Shown piece by piece: positions 1-11,089 of a stretch of DNA of 64,000 nucleotides. Source of the stretch: a bacterium (GTDB taxonomy: Bacteria; SAR324; XYD2-FULL-50-16); the NCBI GenBank assembly GCA_032250835.1, contig JAVVEA010000005.1, forward strand, positions 1 to 64,000, in the 5' to 3' direction. Position 1 is the first letter of the stretch, and the number at the start of each line of letters is the position of its first letter. The translations under genes and the position numbers were made by a program. The notes below the pieces were generated by a model. That model was not told the DNA's origin. It ran no database searches and worked only from the letters and a program-made list of their open reading frames with translations.

Positions 1-3000
1 CGGTGGGGCAACTGCATCCAGGAGCCATACTGTCCATCCGTCAGGGCCCATGCGGTACCCGCCGACCAGCTACTGGCACCTAAGGTCACCTTATGCACCG
101 CGTGCCCCGTCGGGTCCGTGAAGTTGGTCGGGTTGTTGCGCACGTAGGCGTAGCGGTTGAAGTGGACCGCGCCGGTTCCATCGCCGTCGATCAAAGTGTC
201 CGGGCTGATGAAGCGGCCCAGGCTCGGATCATAGTAACGTGCGTTATAATAGATCAAACCGGTGGACTCGTCCAGTTCCTGACCCGTAAAAGAGGCGTAT
301 TGTTTGGCCGCCTTGCGGTGGTCCAAGGTGGACTGCACGTCTACCTCTCCGTATGGCAGGTGGCGGATTCTCGCCGCCACCTGGCCTTCTGAGTCGGTGA
401 TCAACGTCGCCGTTTGGATGTGGTTGGGGTGGAAGAACACCTTGTCGGTCATGGGCCGGGTCTGGACCATTTGGCCTAACAAGTTGCCCGAACTCAACGC
501 CCTCGCAGGAGCGCTGAGATCTTCGGAAGTTCCCTCTGTACCTTGATCGTCGTCAACGTCAACGTCCAGCGTCTCGCCGCTGAGCGTTGTCGAATCACCT
601 ATCGACAAGGGGTCTCCGTTACCCTGATTCCCGTTCCCGCAAGAAGCCACCCAAAACATCATGAACACCATGCTCAACGACACCAAGCGGTTGCCCCAAC
701 CGAAACGGCTGGTTTCCTGGGTTTCGTTTCGCCAGTTCTTGAGTTGACTCCACAATAAGGCCATCAGCACGGCGAGGGACAAAAGTCCAAAGAAGGTATA
801 AGGCAGGTTGACCAAGAATTGCGGTTCCGTAATTTTGGCCAAAAACCGGTAACCTACCGCTAAGGCAAAGCCCTTGGGCGTATTTTGGTCAAATATTTGT
901 GAATAGGCGACCCACTGACCGGCTTCGTCGGTTTCTCCGAAGGCGTAATGTTCATCGAAGCTGGCCAACTTGCCGTAACTGCCGGCTGAGATGGTTTTGG
1001 TGATCACAAACTTGTTGCCCTCGTGGTCGTGCTTCACTTGCACGCCTGCAGCGGGGTAGAAGGTGGTGTGTACCTTGTGGTTGTGGTGACCTCGGTAGAC
1101 CCGCTGCAAAATCCGCTGGCCCTTGTAGTCGTACGCGTTGGCCTGGAGTAGGCCTCCGTTTTTATAGACTTCCGTCATATGGCCCAAGGCGTTGTAGCGG
1201 TAGCCCCATTCAAGACCGTCCTGCAATTTGCCGGTCATCGCGCCGCTCCCATCATAGGTCACTTCGGTCCGCGTACCCGCAATCAGCTGTGTGCCGTTGT
1301 AGGTGAAGTCGCGGTCCACGGCGGCCCCGATATGGGTCATGTTACCGATCTGGTCATAAGCGTAGGTTTTATCACCATATGCGCCCGTGGCTCGGATCAA
1401 TTGTCCTAAAGGATCATATTCAAAAATCTGGCTCTGTGAAAGGCTGATGCCGGTCGAGAGGATGTGGTCTCGATCTTTTTCGCGGTCATGATCCTCTGAC
1501 TTACCGTGTTCATCGGATTTTTTTGACTCCTTATGTTCCCTTTCGTAGTGGTCTTTTTCCTGGCCATAATGATGGCCCTGGTCATGGTCATGGTCATCGT
1601 CTTCCTCACCGTAACGAGTGAAGTCGTCAATGCGGCTCACATTGCCCAGCACGTCGAAGCCGTAGCTCAGATTCTGCAGCTCCAAGCCCCTTGCGTTGGT
1701 GACCGACATGTTGGTGAGTAGGCCGCGCTGGTCAAAGCTAAAGCGGCTGACCACTTCAGAAGTCTGCCCTGGCTCCAAGGTCCGGGTGCTCGGTTGGCCG
1801 TAGGCGCTAAATCCGTCGTACTGTGCGTACACTTGCCCGTCGACCTTGACCTGGAACAGGTTGCCACCGGGCGTGTAATCGTAAGATTGCACCGTCGCCG
1901 GCGCGGGGCCAAATTTAGGGAAGCTTTCGCTGATCGCCCGACCCGCCAAGTCATAACTCCAATTACGGGTGAATACGGCTGGCAGGGCACCGAACTGAAC
2001 CGCTTCGGCGGATTTGCGCCCCATGGAGTCGTAAGCAAATTCAATCGTCCGGGCGGGATCAACGACTTTCGACAGGCGGCCCAGCGAGTTGGGCATTGCC
2101 GAATCGTCATAGGTAAAGGAGGTCACCTCTCCGTCGGCACTGATCCGGCGAGTGATGCGATTGAGCTCGTCAAACTCAAACCGCAGGGTACGACCCATGT
2201 TGTCGGTTACCCCCACTTTGTTGCCGTTTCGGTCATAATCATAGCTTACTAAACCCACCGAAGGGTCTTGCATCTGACGCAATTGGCCGAAGTTATCGAA
2301 GTTTTGTAAGACCTGCTGGCCATTGGGCAGATCGATCCGGGTCACGTTTCCCTTTAAATCATAGCCATAGAAAAGGGACCGCCCGGCTTTGTCTTTGACC
2401 TCAACCAGCCGTCCACGCCGGTCATATAGCCTTGTTTCTTTCTGCCCCTTCGCGTTGGTCATGGTGACCTGCCCCAGCCCGTATGCGTAAGTGATGGTTT
2501 TTCCATCGGGGCGCAGGATGCTTAAAGGACGTTCGGCCAAATCTCGCGTTGTCTGGCCCCAAAGCACGGGGTCGCCCTGAAAATGGGGCAAGCTCTTTTT
2601 TTCGATTGATCCGCCGAATTGAAGGACCCGTTCTTTTTCGGCCACAATCAAGCGTCCCTGGTCACCACTTTGAATGGTCCGGTAGACTTCGGAGAATCCA
2701 TCGAAGTATTCTGTACGTTCAGCCATCTGCAAGGGAGCACCGGGCTTTGAACTGGTGGTCCGTTGCAGAGTCCATTGCGTGTTGGGATCGCCTAGGGCCG
2801 AATAACTCTTGGTCGAGTAGCTGCCGTCTGGGCGGTTGACTTGGGTCAAGCGACCAAAAACATCGTAGCTGTAGCTGGTTTCATTTTGGTTGGCATCGCG
2901 CAACACAAGCAACTGTCCAGCGGCGTTGTATTCGCGAACGCTGCGTTGCCCCAAGGCATTGATTCCGCTGGTCAGATAGGCATTATAGATGGGGTCATAC

Positions 3001-6000
3001 TCTAAGACGCTACGGTTGCCTTTGGCATCTTCCAAGGCAATCAAGTTGCCACTGGTATCGTACGTCATCCCCTGAGTCTTAGGCACCCACACCCCGCTAG
3101 CGGTGGTGCATTGGGTCGATTCAGGACAGAAGAAAGACTCGATCGCCGTGATTTGGTTACCTGAATACTGGAAACGCGAGCCCGAAACCACAAGGCTGCC
3201 AGCGTATTCCATTGACTCGGTCGGCTGCCGCAAAATCCAGTTGGAAAGATCGTCGTGGTAGCTCATCTTCGTCCTGCGACAATCGGTGTCGATGCAGTCT
3301 ATCCGTTCGATGACGCTATCATAAGCGCCGAAGGTACTTTGGCTGGTCGAGGTCTTATATAAGGTGCCTCCTTCGTAGACTTTCTGCTCGCGGCTGGTCT
3401 GGTGAATACTGAAGACTTCCGGATAATGCTGCGCCCGGTCCCATTGATAGCTATCGACCGACAAAAGGCGGCCTAGATGATCGCGAGATTCCGAGCGAGA
3501 CGGCAATCCATGAAAGGGAACGTCTTGGCGGAAATATTCCGTCTTGGAAACTCCCAAGGGATCTACGTGAGTCGTCTTCGAAGCAAATCCCAGATTCTTG
3601 GTCTGGCTGCGGTCACCGGGCAGATAGCGGGCATTTTGGTACTGATACTGGCGCGACAGACTCATCCCACGACCATTCGTTTGCGTCACTTTCGTGACCA
3701 AGTAACGAAAGGCCGTATCGGCTTGCCCCGGACCGGCTGCTGCTCCGGGCACAACGGCACCTGGATGGTCTAAGGTAGACTGGTAGGCCAGTTGCATCGA
3801 GCCGCCAGCACCATTGTCTAATGCGACCAGAGCATCACGCTTCCCAGCCGTGCTCATCCATAATTTGGTAGCATCACCCCCGGTTTTGCCTCTCAAGAGC
3901 AGGTCGATGTTGCCATCGGCATTGAGGTCAAGAGAGCTCATCAGGCTTTGGGCCTCGCTCCAATCGGCGCGAGAAAACCCCAACACACCGTCTAGGCTTT
4001 GGGGTGTTTGGTACCCACCCGAAGCGGCGGCTTTTGCCACAAAGGAAGGCTGTGCGGCATCTTTGGACAGAAAATAGAGGTCTAAACGACCTGCGCCTTT
4101 GGTGTTCAACCAGCGCAACGAAAAGTTATCGGTTGCCCATTTGTCGGCGCTAATGCCCCATTTATTGCTCAAGCTGGCTGCGTTGTCGAACCCTTGACCG
4201 TTTTGCCGGGCCCATATGGGCGCCAAGCTGGTGTTCTTGGGTAGGAAGATCAAGTCGTCTAGGCCGTCAGCGTCTAGGTCGCGGGTAAGCAGTGTATAGT
4301 TGGCCGAATTCCAATGGCTCTTGTTCAAGCCATAGGCATTGGTCACAACCGTTAATCCCTGGTAGCCGGTAGGCGTCGAAAGGGATAGATAAGTTTCGTA
4401 GAGTTCGTTGTAGGGAACAAACAGAAGATCCGGGCGGCCATCTCGGTTGAGGTCAATCCGTTGCACCCGGAAGTTTGGCGTTGGGGCCACGGTCACATCG
4501 GGTGTGGCCATCTGCGGCAAACCCCAGGAGCTATTGTTTCGATCAGCTTTGGTGAAGCCACCTCCGGTCTTGCCGTTAAGCATAAATCCAGGCTGATGCA
4601 TGAAAATGGGCATCAGGTAAAAGTCCAGCATCCCGTCGCCGTTGTAGTCACCCAAGGCCCAGGTAACCGAGTCACCGCTCAAGGCGGCATTGCTCAAGCC
4701 CAACTGGCTGGCAATATCGACGGCTGATTTAAAACCGCCTTGTCCGTCCGCTTCAAGATACAAGGTCGACTGGTCTTGATTGAGCCCCTGCAAGAGCAAG
4801 TCGTCGAACGAGTCTTGGTTGTAGTCGACCACGTGAACAAGGTGGTTGCTTCGGTTCCAGGCGGCGTTGTTCATGCCGTAGCTGTTGGTGATGTTCTTTG
4901 CGTTGTCAAAACTGCCGTTTTGGTTGGCCAGCAGCAACTTCGCCTTTCCATTGCCCTTAGGCTGCAACAATAGATCCCTGCGGCCGTCACCATTGAAGTC
5001 GGCAAAGTGCAATTGACTCGCATCGATCGCCCATTCTGCTTGAGATACCCCCCAGACACCGTTCTGGTCACTCGGCACCGACGTTCCGGTCAACGTCGCA
5101 TCCCGCCAGGTGAACTGATGCGTCCTCAACAGACTGAGCCCGTCCGAACCAAACTCAGACACACGATTCAGGCGGCTGTACCCCGAGTCTTCACTCTGTT
5201 CATAAGCTAATTGATAGCTAAAGAAGAGGCTGGCTCCGGCGTAGATATCGATGCGAGATAGGCGCTGGGTCCGTTTTATAGGTGCTCCGTACGATTGAAT
5301 ATCGGAATAATCTGGCCGTCCTTCATAGATAAATTCCACTCCTTTAGCGTGGTCGGCGCTTCGACCATTGCCCAACGTATACAGCATGCGCCGAACCCGG
5401 AAATCGCCCGTGGTGGTGTCTTCGTCATACTGCACCTCATAATAGTTTCCGAACCGGTCTTCTACACGGTTTAAGGCCCAAACGCGGACGGCACCACCAC
5501 GGCCGCTTGCTTCGATCCGCGAATCGTTTGTGTATCCGAAGTAGGATTTAACTCCGTCGCGGGTCGTCCGAATCCATTGGCAAGGGCCAGCGGACCCACA
5601 GTTGCCTTGGGGCTGATACTGGGCCCAGTTTCCGATTCGGCGTGATATTGGGTTTTAGCCCCAGAGATGTCGACTAGCGGCCCATCGGGACCCACAAAGG
5701 AGTCTGCGGCGCTATATTGCACTCCATTCTCATTGGGCGTTCGCGAAATGGCTGAAAGCCCCCCTAGGTACCAACCGACCCCCAAAAGACCGTTCCCGCG
5801 TGAGGACGAATAGGCCAAAGCCAACTCAGGGCGCAGCTTCTGCGTTGCCTGAGGCAGCATCAAGGGGATGGCATGATTGAAATCACCTCGCGTCGAAACT
5901 TCGGCCTGACTCGGAGTAGAACTCAAGACCAGACACGCCACCAGGACTAAAATTGCGCTCCAATAACGCAGTCGTAGCTCCAGGGGGCGGTGTCTTTGAG

Positions 6001-6077
6001 TCTGCTTTTTGGGGGAGCAAGAGAGAGAGAGAGAGAGGATTCTGAGCTTTCAAGACGGTTACGATAGAATTAGACAT
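1..6077 (-). CDS. Large RHS/YD-repeat protein (SpvB-like N-term, FG-GAP repeats, TcdB-midN-like region, YD repeats, RHS core, start of C-terminal domain); 3' end outside window; two frameshifts near 5' end (phase-variable, pseudogene or assembly error)
   Basis: Manual translation. ATG 6077 with RBS GAGG. SpvB-like PELALAYSSSRGNGLLGVGWYLGGLSAISR lies in frame 5941. One frame appears open from ~5630 to position 1 (spot-checked; ORF track shows no stop-terminated ORF in it) with DFNGDGRRDLL, GDYNGDGMLDF, DLNRDGRPDLL, DLDADGLDDL, DLNADGNIDLL, many YxYD motifs, and core FTGQELDESTGLIYYNARYYDPSLGRFISPD...NRYAYVRNNPTNFTDPTGH. Confidence 0.9.
6020..6037 (-). repeat. (CT)9 simple sequence repeat in 5' coding region of RHS gene
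   Basis: AGAGAGAGAGAGAGAGAG on + strand; (CT)7 or (CT)10 would join ATG 6077 to the signal-peptide/SpvB frame. Confidence 0.9.
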
Positions 6078-6510
6078 AATTTCCTCACTTAGAAAGGGTA
6101 TTCAGAAGCCTCACTAACTACCTAGCGAGCCAATTGCCTAGGAGTAAAAAACAACTATGGGACTTCACCCTAAAAGATTTCGGGTTAATTCCCTAGGCAA
6201 TAACCTAATCGATTTCCCCAAAATGTCAAATAAAAAAATAACTCCGAAAAATGTTTTCCATAGGTACGCCAAAAACCAGGAGGACTCTTCAGGAATTTTA
6301 TTTTATTATATATATGTTTCAGTTGATTACAGTGACTTTTTACCAAACCGTCCAAATAAAGAGTCAAAGATTCGCTTCATCTTAACAGTGGTCCAGGATC
6401 GCTTCAGAATCGCTGCAAGGTATTTTGTTAAAAAGCCGGAGATCCTCGTATGTTGCTTCATAACCAAGACCTGCGACCATGCACCCGAAACATGCCGGAG
6501 TGTACCCCCC

Positions 6511-6549
6511 AAAAACACAAAACCCCGCTCTAGGCGGGGTTTTGCTTTT
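6511..6549. terminator. Probable bidirectional intrinsic terminator
   Basis: AAAACCCCGC-TCTAG-GCGGGGTTTT with T-rich tails on both strands. Confidence 0.7.
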
Positions 6550-6597
6550 AAACTAAATTTTCAAGGACCCTGACCCATCGCGGGGTTCCGAGCGGGC

Positions 6598-7735
6598 GTC
6601 ATGCGGTCCCCATAGGGGGACTTGGCTTCGGCTTCCCATGGACGCAGGCATCTGGGCCGGGCGCGGGGAAGGCGCTGTTTTCGCTGCATGGCTCCCGCAG
6701 GAACAGGGCGGTAGGCCCAATATGCGGGCCAATCAACCAAAAGTCACGCGAGGCCCCTAAATTCAGTCCAACGCGGTCCCCATAAGGGGGATTTGGCTTC
6801 GGCTTCCTTTTCACTCGGGCCCTAAGGGCACCCTACAACTCAGGAAGGCGCTGTTTCTGCTGCGTTGGCCCTCACCGGGGCCGGGCGGGTGGTCCTCGGG
6901 ACCACCGATCTACAAAATCACCAAAAGTCTGACTTCTAAAAGTCTCGCGAGGCCCCTAAATTTAGTCCAACGCGGTCCCCATAAGGGGGATTTGGCTTCG
7001 GCTTCCCACTGGCGGTGCCTCTGGGCCAACGCCGGGAAGGCGCTGTTTCGGCTGCGTTGGCCCTCAGCGGGGCCGAGCGGGTGGCCCTCGGGGCCACCGA
7101 TCTACAAAATCACCAAAAGTCTAACTTCTAAAGTCACGCGAGGCCCCTAAATCGTTCCAACGCGGTCCCCTAAGGGGGATAAGGCTCTTCGGCTTCATAT
7201 AGCCGGGCTCTTGAGGCCCGACGGCCAGAAGTCGCTGTTTCTGCTGCGTTGGCCCTAACCGGGGCCTTGCGGGTGGTCCTCGGGGCCACCGGGTTACAAA
7301 GTCACCTAAAAGTCTCGCAGGACCCTTAAAGGGCCCCCGTCACCTTAAAAAAGTTCCTTCGAAAAACCCCAAGGGAATCGAGCTAGCATCAATTCCCGTC
7401 AACCCAGCCCCCGTAGGGGCGCTGATCTTCCCCAAGCGGTCGGCGCGGTCCCCCTAAGGGAGACTTGGCTTCGGCTTCTGCCTGCGAGCAGGTCGAGAAG
7501 GCGCTGTTTTGGCTGCGCCGAAGGCCTAGAAAAATCAAGTTCTAAGAATGCTGAAGGAACCAGACCGGCTTCGTGCCGATCTCAAAAGAGCCAGAAATTG
7601 GCCCGCAAAACGAGGAGCTTAAACTTGCCCGTAGGAAGGTTCCCAGGGCGGTTTCACGGTCCCCTAAGGGGGACTTAGCTGGCTTCCCCAAAGGCTCCCG
7701 TCAGTGGGGCTAGGGGAGTGCGGTATTCAAGTGAA
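6598..7735. repeat. Tandem array of 5 clear + 1 degenerate copies of a ~80-100 nt structured motif (candidate ncRNA or REP-like array)
   Basis: Units at ~6600-6690, 6768-6868, 6967-7060, 7157-7252, 7440-7521, 7653-7735; shared core GCGGTCCCC-loop-GGGGA(T/C)TTGGCTTCGGCTTC[variable]GAAGGCGCTGTTTyNGCTGC. Confidence 0.9.
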
Positions 7736-7736
7736 T

Positions 7737-7905
7737 AACCGCCCTGCCGTGTAGTTGGGCGAATTGAACCTGAGTTGTCTCAGGTGGGAGTAGTATAACG
7801 GCGTCAGGCTTCCTAGCGAACCAGGCATGCACACTGCCGACAGAGACCAGTCCCTTTCTATAAGCATCGGCTCAATATATCCCAAAAAGCACGAACAGGG
7901 CAGTC
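7737..7905 (-). ncRNA. ssrS: 6S RNA
   Basis: Directly downstream of zapA; terminal stem GACTGCCCTG/CAGGGCGGTT; 6S-like motifs TTGAGCCGATG and CCCACCTGAG..CTCAGGTTCAA; ~170 nt; ends approximate. Confidence 0.85.
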
Positions 7906-7917
7906 AAGCTCCCATCT

Positions 7918-8250
7918 CTAATGAGCTTCTTGGGAAATTGCAACCTCAGAATGGGCAACCGCTTGGTTTCCCAGTAAAAGGTCCAATTCCCTAACCAAGG
8001 GCGTCAACCTTTCTTCGACCAGGGCCGATTGTTTTTTACGCTCCGCCTCCTCGCGGAGACCTTGGTCGGCGAGCATAATGGCGATTTTCATGGCCGCTTG
8101 GGAGAGATTGGGGTTCAGGCCCCCTTGGGCTAGGGCTCCAACGATTTCTTGGAGTCGCGACTCAATCTCTCGGACATGGGCTTCGCCATCACTACAACGC
8201 AGACTATAGCTCTGGTTATTCACCTCGATAGAGTAGGTCTGATTTTCCAT
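7918..8250 (-). CDS. zapA: Cell division protein ZapA
   Basis: YSIEVNNQSYSLRC...EAHVREI...AAMKIAIMLAD plus C-terminal coiled coil; precedes 6S RNA. Confidence 0.8.
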   Translation of the reverse strand: MENQTYSIEVNNQSYSLRCSDGEAHVREIESRLQEIVGALAQGGLNPNLSQAAMKIAIMLADQGLREEAERKKQSALVEERLTPLVRELDLLLGNQAVAHSEVAISQEAH

Positions 8251-8530
8251 GAACAAATTCTTCGGCCCTTGTGTTTAAGCCCTTACAGAACCCTTTTGGT
8301 TCTCTCGGGTAAATTATAGCACAGCCGCCGCCGCTTGCAAGGTCTATTTGTTCATAGCAGATGAATTTTTTTTAACTTGCCAGCAGGGGCTCATCCATTG
8401 TTACTTGGATTCCAGCGGGATTTCAAGACTTTTTGAACCCGAGGCATCATGGACCCTTTTTACTTGTCAGGCTCAAGTTCCTTCGGTTAATCTTGTACCC
8501 TTACCAACCAGCATAAGATCCAGATTCCCA

Positions 8531-8674
8531 ATGCCCGAAATCCATAATCTCAATTACGTAGTAGCCTCTTACGGCATCACTTTTGTCGTAATCTTCGGTT
8601 ACGCCCTTTGGGTCTGGGCCCGCATCGCTAAGGCGAAGCGGCAACAGGCCGAACTCAACCAAAACCAAAAATGA
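8531..8674 (+). CDS. ccmD: Heme exporter protein CcmD-like (47 aa)
   Basis: YVVASYGITFVVIFGY TM segment plus basic tail; ATGA overlap with ccmE. Confidence 0.75.
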   Translation: MPEIHNLNYVVASYGITFVVIFGYALWVWARIAKAKRQQAELNQNQK

Positions 8675-9120
8675 ACAAACGCAGCATCAAGTTCATCGCT
8701 GGTGGGGTCTTAATCCTGCTGGTTGCCTTGGGGCTATTTTCTTCGCTTAGCTCCGAGAACCTCACCTACTACCAAACACCCAACGAAGTATTGGCCAACC
8801 CCGCTAAGTACGAAAACGAAAAAATCCGCATCATGGGTTTGATCGAAAAAGACTCAGTAACCTGGGAACCCCAGGACACCCGCCTTAGCTTCCGTATCAC
8901 CGAAGACTCAGAAACCTTTTTGAGCGTCACCTACATCGGCAGCAAGCCGGACATGTTCAAAGAAGGTCAAGGGGTCGTAGTCGAAGGCATGATGGTCAGT
9001 GCCAAGGAATTTAAAGCCAACACCCTTCTGGTTAAGCACTCCGAGGAATACAAGGTAGACCCTGAGATGATGCACCAGATGAAAAAAGACAAATACTTCG
9101 ACTCGCTGAGCGCTAACTGA
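8671..9120 (+). CDS. ccmE: Cytochrome c maturation heme chaperone CcmE
   Basis: PDMFKEGQGVVVEG and KHSEEY heme-binding motif. Confidence 0.95.
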   Translation: MNKRSIKFIAGGVLILLVALGLFSSLSSENLTYYQTPNEVLANPAKYENEKIRIMGLIEKDSVTWEPQDTRLSFRITEDSETFLSVTYIGSKPDMFKEGQGVVVEGMMVSAKEFKANTLLVKHSEEYKVDPEMMHQMKKDKYFDSLSAN

Positions 9121-9127
9121 GAACACT

Positions 9128-11089
9128 ATGATTGTTGATATTGGTTATTACGCCCTGCTGTCCGCTTTGGTCCTCACCCTGTTCGGTATCTTCGCCGGGC
9201 TTTCGGGTATCCATAAGGACAGCAACAACCTGATCATTTCCTTTCGCTACTCGATCATAGCGGTTTTCGGTTTAGTTGCGGTTGCCTATGCAGCGCTTAG
9301 CTATGCGTTCTTGAGCAACGACTTCACCGTTAAGTTTGTCGCCAATAACTCCAGCACCGACCTCCCGATATTCTATAAGATAACCGCCGTTTGGGGCGGT
9401 TTGGAAGGTTCGCTGCTCTTGTGGCAAATCATCTTATGTTCCTTCGCGGCCATCGTCGCGATCCGCTACGCTAAGTCCAACCGGGAAACACTGCCCTATA
9501 CGCTGGTGGTCTTGCAGTTAAGCACCCTCTTTTTGTTGTTCCTGCTGATCGGCTGGTCGAACCCCTTTGAGCGGATTTTCCCAATCCCCGCCGAGGGACG
9601 CGGCTTAAATCCGCTGTTACAAAACCCCGGCATGGTCGCCCACCCGCCTGCGTTATACCTGGGTTATGTGGGGTTTAACATCCCCTTCGCCTTCGCCATG
9701 GGCAGCTTGCTGTCTAAAAAACCCAACGATGATTGGATTTTAACGACCCGCCGCTGGACCCTGATCAGTTGGTTCTTTTTGACTATGGGTATGATCTTAG
9801 GCGGCAACTGGGCCTATGTGGAATTGGGCTGGGGCGGTTATTGGGCCTGGGACCCAGTAGAAAACGCTTCGCTGATGCCCTGGCTGACGGGTACCGCTTT
9901 CTTGCACTCGGTGATGGTCCAAGAAAAACGCAACGGGCTGAAACTTTGGAACTTGATGTTGATCATTGGGACCTTTGCCCTTTCGATCTTAGGCACCTTC
10001 ATCACCCGCTCGGGCGTGCTCAACTCGGTCCACGCCTTTAGTAAGTCCAACATTGGCCCGGCTTTCTTGGTTTTCATCGCCCTCATCTTAGTCGGCTCTT
10101 ACGCGCTGCTGTACGTGCGCCAAAGCCGCTTTGCCATCAAAGAAAAAGCCAAGGGTTTTTTGAGCAAGGAGAACGGCTTCTTGCTCAACAACTTGGTCTT
10201 TGTGGCGATGGCATTCACCGTCTTTTACGGCACCGTCTTCCCGCTCTTGGCCGAAGGCTTGGCCAACAAGAAAATCAGCATCCAGGCCCCCTTCTTTAAC
10301 AGCATCATGTTGCCTTTGGGCGTGTTCACCATCTTCTTGATGGGCGTCACCCAGGCCTTAGGTTGGAAAAAGACCAGCAACCAGATGTTGCGGCGTGAAT
10401 TAATGGCCCCCGTTATCCTCTCGGTGGCTTTTGCGGTAGTGATGCCTTTCTTGGTAGAGACCTCTTGGCAGATGCTGTTGATGTCAACCATGACCCTCTT
10501 TGCGCTGTACGTGAACGTGCTTGAACTGGTGCGCAGTTTCCGCGGCGGGTTCCAGCGCAAGACCAAGTCCGGCGGTGGGTCGAAGCTCAAATCGATCTTA
10601 ACGGACCGGCGCAAGCGCGGCGGTTTGATCGTGCATTTGGGTGTGGTGGTCATGATGATCGGCTTTACCGGCAACTTCTTCGGCGAAGAGGGGGCCTTTA
10701 CGCTCAATCGGGGCGAAACCCACGCTTTTGCCGGGTACCAGCTAAAATACACCGAGGCGCTTGAATATAAGCAGCTCAACGCGGAACATGTCGGTGCCCG
10801 CATCTTGATCAGCAGAGACGGTGTCTCCGAAGGGGAGATTTTACCTTCTAAGGCCTTCTACCCGACCCGTCCCGAACCGATGACCGAGGTGGCCATCCAC
10901 CGCACCCTGGTCCACGACCTATATGTTAGTTTGGCTTCGATCAACGAGGACGGCTCGGCGACGCTGAATCTTTACTTCAACCCCATGGTCAACTTCGTCT
11001 GGGCCAGTATGGGCCTTTACATCTTAGGTTTGGCCTATAGCCTCTCCTACAAGCCAGCCCAAAAACGCGGCGGACACCTAAAGGAATAG
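9128..11089 (+). CDS. ccmF: Heme lyase CcmF
   Basis: WGGYWAWDPVENASLMPW (WWD domain), HPP, SVHAF. Confidence 0.97.
   Translation: MIVDIGYYALLSALVLTLFGIFAGLSGIHKDSNNLIISFRYSIIAVFGLVAVAYAALSYAFLSNDFTVKFVANNSSTDLPIFYKITAVWGGLEGSLLLWQIILCSFAAIVAIRYAKSNRETLPYTLVVLQLSTLFLLFLLIGWSNPFERIFPIPAEGRGLNPLLQNPGMVAHPPALYLGYVGFNIPFAFAMGSLLSKKPNDDWILTTRRWTLISWFFLTMGMILGGNWAYVELGWGGYWAWDPVENASLMPWLTGTAFLHSVMVQEKRNGLKLWNLMLIIGTFALSILGTFITRSGVLNSVHAFSKSNIGPAFLVFIALILVGSYALLYVRQSRFAIKEKAKGFLSKENGFLLNNLVFVAMAFTVFYGTVFPLLAEGLANKKISIQAPFFNSIMLPLGVFTIFLMGVTQALGWKKTSNQMLRRELMAPVILSVAFAVVMPFLVETSWQMLLMSTMTLFALYVNVLELVRSFRGGFQRKTKSGGGSKLKSILTDRRKRGGLIVHLGVVVMMIGFTGNFFGEEGAFTLNRGETHAFAGYQLKYTEALEYKQLNAEHVGARILISRDGVSEGEILPSKAFYPTRPEPMTEVAIHRTLVHDLYVSLASINEDGSATLNLYFNPMVNFVWASMGLYILGLAYSLSYKPAQKRGGHLKE

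Follow-up and report, generated by a model that had tools for sequence, protein, structure and literature searches.

The stretch of DNA analyzed here, the first 64,000 nucleotides of one contig of a SAR324 bacterium (GenBank JAVVEA010000005.1, contig C39 of a 3.66-Mb genome in 43 contigs; hereafter the window), opens with a reverse-strand gene encoding an RHS/YD-repeat toxin of the cocoon type. Between the last strands of its RHS shell and its RHS repeat-associated core, the protein carries a hairpin of two hydrophobic segments, transmembrane segments 1 and 2 (TM1 and TM2), the second of which ends in a lipobox. Based on this arrangement and its conservation among relatives, we propose that the hairpin combines a stop-transfer helix with an internal type II signal peptide, and that a cut by LspA would divide the protein into a shell anchored in the membrane and a lipidated chain of core and toxin, which would close the shell in trans. 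We consider this proposal somewhat better than an even bet.

The RHS protein and its hairpin

The main open reading frame (ORF) runs on the reverse strand, as do all features of this gene given below, from 5435 to 3; it encodes 1,811 amino acids and is open at the contig start. Its Pfam matches are RHS_repeat (E value, 1.8e-41), FG-GAP_3 (2.8e-13), and TcdB_toxin_midN (4.6e-07). Upstream, at 5471 to 5941 and in a different frame than the main ORF, lie an SpvB-type N-terminal domain (PF03534; 8.5e-12) and a signal-like hydrophobic stretch (approximately 5903 to 5953). The RHS repeat-associated core (residues 1665 to 1778; 102 to 443) matched TIGR03696 with 88 bits against a cutoff of 32.5 and ends in NPTNFTDPTGH, which includes the DPxG motif. 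It is followed by the first 33 residues of a C-terminal toxin domain (3 to 101), truncated by the contig end; no continuation of this domain was found on any other contig of the assembly. An AlphaFold model of residues 612 to 1811, for which 25 aligned sequences served as input, had a mean predicted local distance difference test score (pLDDT) of 80.4. Foldseek matched the model to TcdB2-TccC3 and to the Rhs cocoons of type VI secretion systems (T6SS) with E values of 1e-39 to 1e-41 and TMq values of up to 0.68. Given these domain and fold matches, the encoded protein is an RHS cocoon toxin of the fused TcB-TcC type, composed of an SpvB domain, an FG-GAP propeller, a YD shell, a core, and a toxin.

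A first-pass annotation, made from the letters alone, had described a helix pair with a short charged loop, a VASC motif with its Cys codon at 639 to 641, and a Gly/Asn/Asp-rich linker before the core; our reading of the ORF (residues ~1540 to 1607) and its hydropathy agrees on every point. The first-pass annotation had named the lack of a TM prediction as a refutation of its reading; in a 19-residue Kyte-Doolittle scan, the only two hydrophobic stretches in all 1,811 residues were found just ahead of the RHS core. Segments reaching the threshold of 1.4 started only at residues 1539 to 1548 (TM1) and at residue 1584 (TM2). TM1, FLVNLPYTFFGLLSLAVLMALLW (residues 1540 to 1562; 750 to 818), reaches a hydropathy of 1.91, corresponds to an AlphaFold helix (model residues 927 to 958), and is read here as a stop-transfer helix. 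The basic loop, SQLKNWRNETQETSRFGWGNR (residues 1563 to 1583; 687 to 749), has a net charge of +2 and is read as cytoplasmic. TM2, LVSLSMVFMMFWVASC (residues 1584 to 1599; 639 to 686), was delimited by the hydropathy scan and by conservation of the Cys that ends its lipobox V-A-S-C, residue 1599. The window protein has the elements of a type II signal peptide in sequence, namely, a basic R..R, an h-region LVSLSMVFMMFW, and then VASC, and we read TM2 as an internal signal peptide of the lipoprotein type. Unlike in N-terminal type II signal peptides, the lipobox Cys lies at residue 1599 of the open frame.

Two predicted helices (residues 1504 to 1535; 831 to 926; AlphaFold helices at model residues 893 to 901 and 909 to 924) lead from the last shell strand to TM1, and alignments showed this lead-in segment to be conserved in hairpin-bearing relatives. 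On the other side of the hairpin is an acidic tether of 65 residues rich in Gly, Asn, Asp, and Thr (residues 1600 to 1664; 444 to 638), with pLDDT values below 50 at model residues 984 to 997 and 999 to 1048. The order in the model is last shell strands, two short helices, the long helix of TM1, TM2, about 60 disordered residues, and the core strands, which run from model residue 1052 onward and the first of which begins KVFFHPNH. The flanking strands are modeled confidently and the intervening helices less so. Structure prediction, which had been suggested as a further check, gives a cocoon fold in which TM1 and TM2 are predicted to lie between the last shell strand and the core. The part downstream of the lipobox Cys, made up of tether, core, and toxin, comprises at least 212 residues in the window and approximately 450 in a complete relative (locus L006).

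Conservation and distribution of the hairpin

Relatives of the C-terminal third were gathered from two sources, namely, the 120 listed matches of a word-indexed search and the best 150 matches of a HMMER search run exhaustively against 1.84 billion representatives; together they amounted to 261 proteins. A core match was present in 259, and the 206 with at least 150 residues upstream of the core formed the survey set. The counts below describe one subfamily, whose related members are not independent trials. Within the 160 residues ahead of the core, at least two hydrophobic segments were found in 65 proteins, one in 5, and none in 136. One of the 65, P0038, was rejected as a false hairpin with a dockerin-like acidic repeat, leaving 64 of the 206 relatives with TM1, the basic loop, and TM2 all present. 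The first-pass annotation had named conservation of the Cys and lipobox as a test of its reading, and here the homologs side with it: a Cys is found within a 13-residue stretch at the TM2 end in 50 of the 64. By comparison, a Cys occurs at the TM1 end in 6 of 64 and at the TM1 start in 2, and composition predicts 7.5%. The binomial P value of 1e-43 for this excess is overstated because the rows are related; the frequency of Cys at the TM2 end is nevertheless far beyond chance. The residue preceding the Cys (position -1) is A, G, or S in 43 of these 50 Cys-types.

For a detailed comparison, we used the 42 Cys-types with at least 400 residues upstream. The last Lys or Arg lies 15 to 22 residues ahead of the Cys in all 42 (median, 16), 31 fit the classical lipobox pattern, and the 15 residues after the Cys are enriched in G, S, N, D, T, and P, which make up 59% of the tether in relatives versus 44% of the background. 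In the Cys-types, the position that follows the Cys (+2) is occupied by G, S, N, or T and in no case by D. The basic loop has a positive net charge in 60 of the 64 hairpin relatives (mean, +3.2; median length, 15 residues), and the mean net charge of the 15 residues past TM2 is -0.9; the median length of TM1 is 22 residues (54 relatives). In an alignment of 13 module sequences the Cys is the sole invariant column, and it is also invariant in 25 longer sequences that were preselected as Cys-types. The placement of the Cys at the TM2 end, the spacing from Lys or Arg, the lipobox fit, the charge of the loop, and the composition after the Cys together mark a signal peptide and not an ordinary membrane helix. 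As to the N terminus, 32 of 39 hairpin proteins of at least 1,700 residues have a signal-like segment there, as do 75 of 102 proteins without the hairpin. A short "HP" motif ahead of TM1 was seen in just 18 of 54 relatives.

The remaining 14 of the 64 hairpin relatives lack the Cys and instead have AxA-type (small-x-small) sites right after TM2, for example, PAAAAQA, ASVAQA, and TAYAQP. These are sites of the signal peptidase I type, present in about a fifth of hairpin relatives. The lipidation foreseen in the first-pass annotation is thus in keeping with the 50 Cys-types and does not extend to these 14, so cleavage rather than the lipid seems to be the conserved requirement: a chain break before the plug would be common to both groups, with the lipid an addition.

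Alignment with relatives that lack the module showed it to be a clean insertion of 110 to 170 residues between a ..TK.I.AG..G.LAS.. strand and a ..YYH.NH.. strand, which in those relatives lie a few to about 30 residues apart. For a FastTree phylogeny of 185 rows, we used the core and 220 residues of the shell and left the module out. One clade of 66 rows (support, 94) contains 38 of the 42 Cys-types and 9 of the 12 AxA-types, which occur as sisters within it, and the 57 rows on the other side of the midpoint root contain neither type. The labels require 9 and 8 changes on the tree versus 37.9 and 11.8 in shuffles. This distribution indicates that the module has long been part of one large branch, that it was lost on occasion, and that one kind of peptidase site has been exchanged for the other.

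We examined 77 named loci, with each species represented by a single genome, and found the full module ahead of 12 RHS cores, which are spread over 11 loci. These loci belong to SAR324 metagenome-assembled genomes (MAGs) (L009, with two cores, L011, and L012), MAGs labeled delta-proteobacterial (L010, L015, and L037), Spirochaetota (L027 and L043), a Leptospiraceae MAG (L021), and unclassified MAGs (L006 and L008). The likeness to Leptospira RHS proteins that the first-pass annotation mentioned is matched by the Leptospiraceae locus. In L009, the two hairpin RHS genes (3814 to 4152 and 10467 to 10808) share one locus, with their cores approximately 6.7 kb apart. Beyond RHS genes, no neighbor gene was found to be common to the 11 loci. 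A profile built from the 13 module sequences found the module in 12 of 88 genomes of the phylum of the window, including 9 of 18 of its family; when run against a set of 5.8 billion proteins, it returned, among the longer proteins, only the query itself.

Putative processing and its alternatives

Breaks in the chain at the position of the hairpin occur naturally in related genes. In Hahella ganghwensis (L068, 189 to 5637), a 1,313-residue shell gene that encodes a signal peptide of its own and RHS repeats has no membrane helix at its end, and 18 bases downstream a second gene of 339 residues begins with MEILAKLKYSLCLTLTVLMLLVSAQA/QSE and leads straight into core and toxin. A 151-residue gene that follows is a probable immunity gene. 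A similar core-toxin gene stands after a giant non-RHS protein in Hahella sp. CCB-MM4 (L079), and about a dozen short proteins among the representatives share the build of signal peptide, core, and toxin. These split genes and short proteins indicate that the point just ahead of the core is a natural chain-break site at which the second piece gains an export signal of its own. A fused gene with the same outcome would need a helix leading back to the cytoplasm and then a signal peptide, as is seen here. In a close homolog of the window gene (L007, ~9540 to 9640; also G085:C30), an in-frame TAG lies in the basic loop between TM1 and TM2, and gene callers have split the protein into P0122, which ends at TM1, and P0123, which starts inside TM2; the TAG could mark a pseudogene, a read-through site, or a split form.

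The genome of the window also contains both an intact paralog and cassettes without a shell. The paralog, on contig C14 (L002, 3044 to the contig end), has a signal (..NTAQA/NITEDGSF), the hairpin, VASC, and the core. On contig C5, one of two shell-less cassettes (L001, 4814 to 6325) begins with MLFIHWVSIMFWVTSC, inside TM2, and continues with tether and core to a toxin that has a glycine-rich membrane segment, and the second cassette begins inside the core. Each is followed by paralogous genes of 209 to 222 residues with their own lipoprotein signals, which are probably immunity genes. L006, the closest complete relative, has the same toxin type and a lipoprotein-type gene after the toxin, which points to toxin action in the cell envelope. 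The whole C5 array (G000:C5:36000-48000; 3946 to 10200) consists of two core-toxin ORFs and three paralogous lipoprotein genes. Its flanks hold a hemerythrin-like gene of 151 residues and a duplicate, 80 residues long, of the 3' end of that gene, and the array looks like an insertion with a target duplication.

The mechanism that we favor would proceed as follows. The N-terminal signal would carry the shell of approximately 1,500 residues over the inner membrane until TM1 halts transfer. The short basic loop would remain in the cytoplasm, and TM2 would restart export as an internal type II signal peptide. Lgt would then lipidate Cys1599, and LspA would cleave before it. One product would be the shell, whose new C terminus, the TM1-loop-TM2 hairpin, would keep it in the membrane; the other would be a lipid-modified chain of tether, core, and toxin. 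The core strands would complete the sheet and plug of the shell in trans, enclosing the toxin, and the loaded cocoon would be fastened to the envelope without a T6SS or TcA. Topology, cleavage, lipidation, trans assembly, and final location are all predictions from sequence. As speculation, a plug freed at both ends, by signal peptidase on one side and by the core's own protease on the other, may be what lets the toxin out. A membrane-anchored shell with processing of the Lgt/LspA type had been suggested in the first-pass annotation, and the comparison with relatives argues well for it.

The genome encodes the enzymes that such processing would use, with one lspA gene (115 bits) and two lgt genes (219 and 190 bits). 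Hcp and PAAR had no match genome-wide; they matched one and three control genomes, respectively. Of the earlier suggestion that the route needs neither a T6SS nor a Tc system, the first half fits this result; for the second, the searches for TcA domains were empty and were also silent in the controls.

Several points weigh against the proposed mechanism. The relatives are the best matches to the window protein and are thus a biased sample. Among the Cys-types, position -1 is N, Y, or Q in 7 of 50, which make poor LspA sites by the Escherichia coli rule, and 11 of 42 miss the classical lipobox pattern. Once cleaved, the shell would remain lodged in the diderm's inner membrane, with no obvious path to a target, and Lol sorting of the lipidated chain to the outer membrane would require that it leave the shell. 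VRP1 and TcA_TcB_BD had no match in this 97% complete genome, yet both models were silent in every control genome, so this null shows little. Finally, the reading frame of the window copy is broken twice within the first 500 bases, and the protein may never be produced.

This last point underlies the alternative that survives best, namely, that the copy in the window is a relic, recently inactivated or phase-switched off, and that the module is used only by intact relatives. The sole ATG with a GAGGA-type ribosome site, at 6077, opens a short frame (5883 to 6077) that holds a (CT)9 tract (6020 to 6037 on the coding strand) and is out of frame with the downstream signal peptide. The Sec-like N-terminal signal noted in the first-pass annotation does exist, as ..ILVLVACLVLSSTPSQA/EV at approximately 5903 to 5953, but in a frame different from those of both the ATG and the main ORF. 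The (CT)9 tract separates the start-codon frame from the signal-peptide frame, and a second frame change lies between 5594 and 5624. The copy therefore occupies three frames, one with the ATG, one with the signal peptide and SpvB domain, and one with the rest of the gene. The C14 paralog aligns over both junctions, with its residues 30 to 148 matching 5953 to 5594 in one frame and residues 139 to 309 matching 5624 to 5085 in another. Since the signal peptide shares a frame with neither the ATG nor the main ORF, the window copy, as assembled, is not one open gene. Its position at the contig end also suits a relic. On the other side, the remaining 1,811 codons are open, the hairpin, lipobox, and core motifs are all intact, and the frame breaks could be sequencing or assembly errors or a repeat-length switch as well as decay. 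Dinucleotide tracts of this kind change length by slippage, and the (CT)9 tract is a candidate slipped-strand on/off switch or assembly artifact. We regard a relic at this locus as a real possibility, short of being the likelier case.

The hairpin could instead be a plain double-pass anchor that holds the cocoon in the inner membrane uncut, with the Cys serving another role or none. TM1 is long and strongly hydrophobic, the seven Cys-types with N, Y, or Q at position -1 would be no anomaly, and internal signal peptides of bacteria are generally cut only rarely. However, a plain anchor gives no reason for a Cys exactly at the end of TM2 (50 of 64, versus 6 of 64 at TM1) and leaves unexplained both the fixed distance of 15 to 22 residues between Lys or Arg and the Cys and the fact that sister lineages have AxA sites in place of the Cys. 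The two-gene form in Hahella ganghwensis shows, moreover, that a chain break is tolerated here. We consider an uncut anchor unlikely.

Slightly less probable still is that the same processing has another outcome, the one put forward in the first-pass annotation. The lipidated chain of tether, core, and toxin would then part from the shell, be carried by Lol to the outer membrane or the cell surface, and work there as a lipoprotein toxin in its own right, much like SitA of myxobacteria. The residue at +2 in the Cys-types is one that in E. coli is generally known to direct sorting to the outer membrane, and ORFs consisting of signal peptide, core, and toxin occur without an adjacent shell gene (L079 and about a dozen short proteins). 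A free lipoprotein would also suit the C5 cassette that starts at TM2, a second TM2-keeping cassette downstream of the main RHS gene in L027, and the lipoprotein-type immunity-like genes after related cassettes. But the core supplies shell strands and the plug and is modeled as part of the shell, and a shell of approximately 1,500 residues would have no role. The C5 orphan, furthermore, has no basic n-region, and the orphans of L007 and L027 have no ATG before TM2. Because the core is predicted to belong to the shell's own beta-sheet and plug, the separate lipoprotein of the first-pass annotation is disfavored, and the cut piece most likely stays in the cocoon.

The weakest alternative, that the helices never enter the membrane of the producer and instead travel with the toxin to insert into the target membrane like the N-terminal TM domains of prePAAR T6SS Rhs proteins, has a precedent in the translocation-aiding hydrophobic helices described for T6SS Rhs effectors (10.1101/2020.10.28.356139), but it is very improbable, as the hairpin proteins have Sec signals and a helix such as TM1 would pass from Sec into the membrane, the genome has no Hcp or PAAR match, and neither the lipobox nor the AxA sites would be explained.

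An extension of the favored mechanism would make the system a two-part machine, in which a membrane-anchored shell receives separately exported chains of signal peptide, core, and toxin. The orphan cassettes with TM2 or a signal of their own (C5, L027, and Hahella) would then be alternative cartridges loaded in trans into a shared periplasmic shell instead of silent reserve copies, and the doubly cut plug would be a release valve replacing TcA or a T6SS. This is a long shot, about as doubtful as the free lipoprotein.

Other features and relation to known systems

The shell of the window protein contains an insert (..EEDDDHDHDQGHHYGQEKDHYEREHKESKK..; 1455 to 1604) of approximately 50 residues in which Asp, Glu, His, and Lys are abundant and which is predicted to be disordered (model residues 667 to 716). 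An acidic, His-rich stretch occurs at the same shell position in the close relatives P0122 and L006, and the insert may bind metal. Upstream of the RHS gene, the region from 6550 to 7150 is apparently noncoding and contains a repeated element; the reading ..KPKPNPPYGDRVGLNLGASRDF.. recurs in ORFs at 6599 to 6814 and 6936 to 7097. This element may be similar to repetitive extragenic palindromic sequences or miniature inverted-repeat transposable elements. On contig C14, a divergent gene upstream of the intact paralog (L002, 609 to 1721) encodes a 370-residue secreted protein that resembles an outer-membrane barrel and ends in ..LTVTLKF; no relatives of it were found elsewhere in the genome or in the fetched loci.

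The family most like the module is NCBIfam NF058595, "invert_tail" (release 20.0; profile length, 113), a lipo-invert putative C-terminal anchoring domain. Its order of a transmembrane helix, a basic loop, and a second helix ending in a lipoprotein-type Cys is also that of the RHS module. We considered homology between the two and rejected it. The module scored 15.1 bits against a cutoff of 37 (14.1 bits for a 432-residue piece), with a match from TM1 to the lipobox (profile positions 25 to 77), and is therefore not a member of NF058595. Weak matches were obtained in 8 of the 13 module sequences (best E value, 1.1e-4), and at an E value of 0.1 or lower the model also found matches in 14 of 14 control genomes, so we take the matches for likeness of composition and not for homology. 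The two differ further in that NF058595 is, by its name, a C-terminal tail, whereas the Cys of the RHS module precedes tether, core, and toxin; in that a fifth of the module's relatives have an AxA site and no Cys; and in that the module has no recurrent partner barrel gene. The lipo-invert principle is thus already catalogued, and the name of that family says nothing of an RHS cocoon in which core and toxin form the lipidated piece.

Ordinary lipoprotein signal peptides of the Sec/Lgt/LspA pathway resemble TM2 in the basic n-region, the usual length of the h-region, the VASC motif, and the G/S/N-rich tether after the Cys; they differ in that TM2 is buried approximately 1,600 residues into the protein and needs TM1 for its orientation. 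The two-gene form of Hahella ganghwensis has its break at the same place, with a signal peptide for each gene, but has neither TM1 nor a lipobox, and its break is genetic and not proteolytic. Among internally cut polyproteins, the cytochrome b/c1 precursor FbcH of Bradyrhizobium is said to be cut at an internal signal peptide. The glycoprotein precursors of flaviviruses and bunyaviruses likewise combine a stop-transfer helix with an internal signal peptide cut by signal peptidase to yield two membrane-associated products. All of these are viral or respiratory proteins and not toxins.

Known RHS cocoons share the container with the window protein but not the hairpin. In T6SS Rhs effectors (RhsA and Tse15), published structures reportedly show two self-cleavages. 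Those effectors with prePAAR TM domains (RhsA, PDB 7Q97; Tse15, PDB 8UXT) combine an RHS cocoon with TM helices and are cleaved at both ends of the shell, as we propose here; their helices are N-terminal and kept soluble by a chaperone and their cuts are self-made, whereas the helices here are internal and signal-peptide-like and a host signal peptidase would be responsible for the putative upstream cut. The BC cocoon of Photorhabdus TcdB2-TccC3 (PDB 4O9X and 6H6E, among others) has the same order of SpvB, propeller, RHS shell, core, and toxin (fold TMq, 0.64 to 0.68) but works with a TcA channel, and its structures have no hairpin, whereas proteins of the window type have a Sec signal and a hairpin before the core.

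We found no description of the hairpin module in the accessible parts of a survey of polymorphic toxins (PMC3482391) and a survey of toxin complex (Tc) proteins (PMC7861908), and a full-text literature search, whose coverage does not extend to subscription journals, returned no paper on the module or on NF058595. The former survey groups Sec-exported RHS cocoons without a T6SS or TcA as a "TcdB/TcaC-like export pathway" (PMC3482391), and their mode of deployment has been in question ever since.

In about a third of the sampled relatives, the presence of the module leads to three predictions, namely, cleavage by a host signal peptidase, attachment of a lipid, and anchoring in a membrane. We know of no toxin that is a polyprotein cut at an internal signal peptide; if the proposed mechanism is true, this would be the first toxin known to us to be processed like a viral polyprotein at such a site. 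For annotation, hairpin-bearing RHS proteins would be read as two mature chains. The mechanism, if true, would also extend the lipo-invert principle from the tails of adhesins to a toxin container and would provide a rationale for the modular cassettes of signal peptide, core, and toxin.

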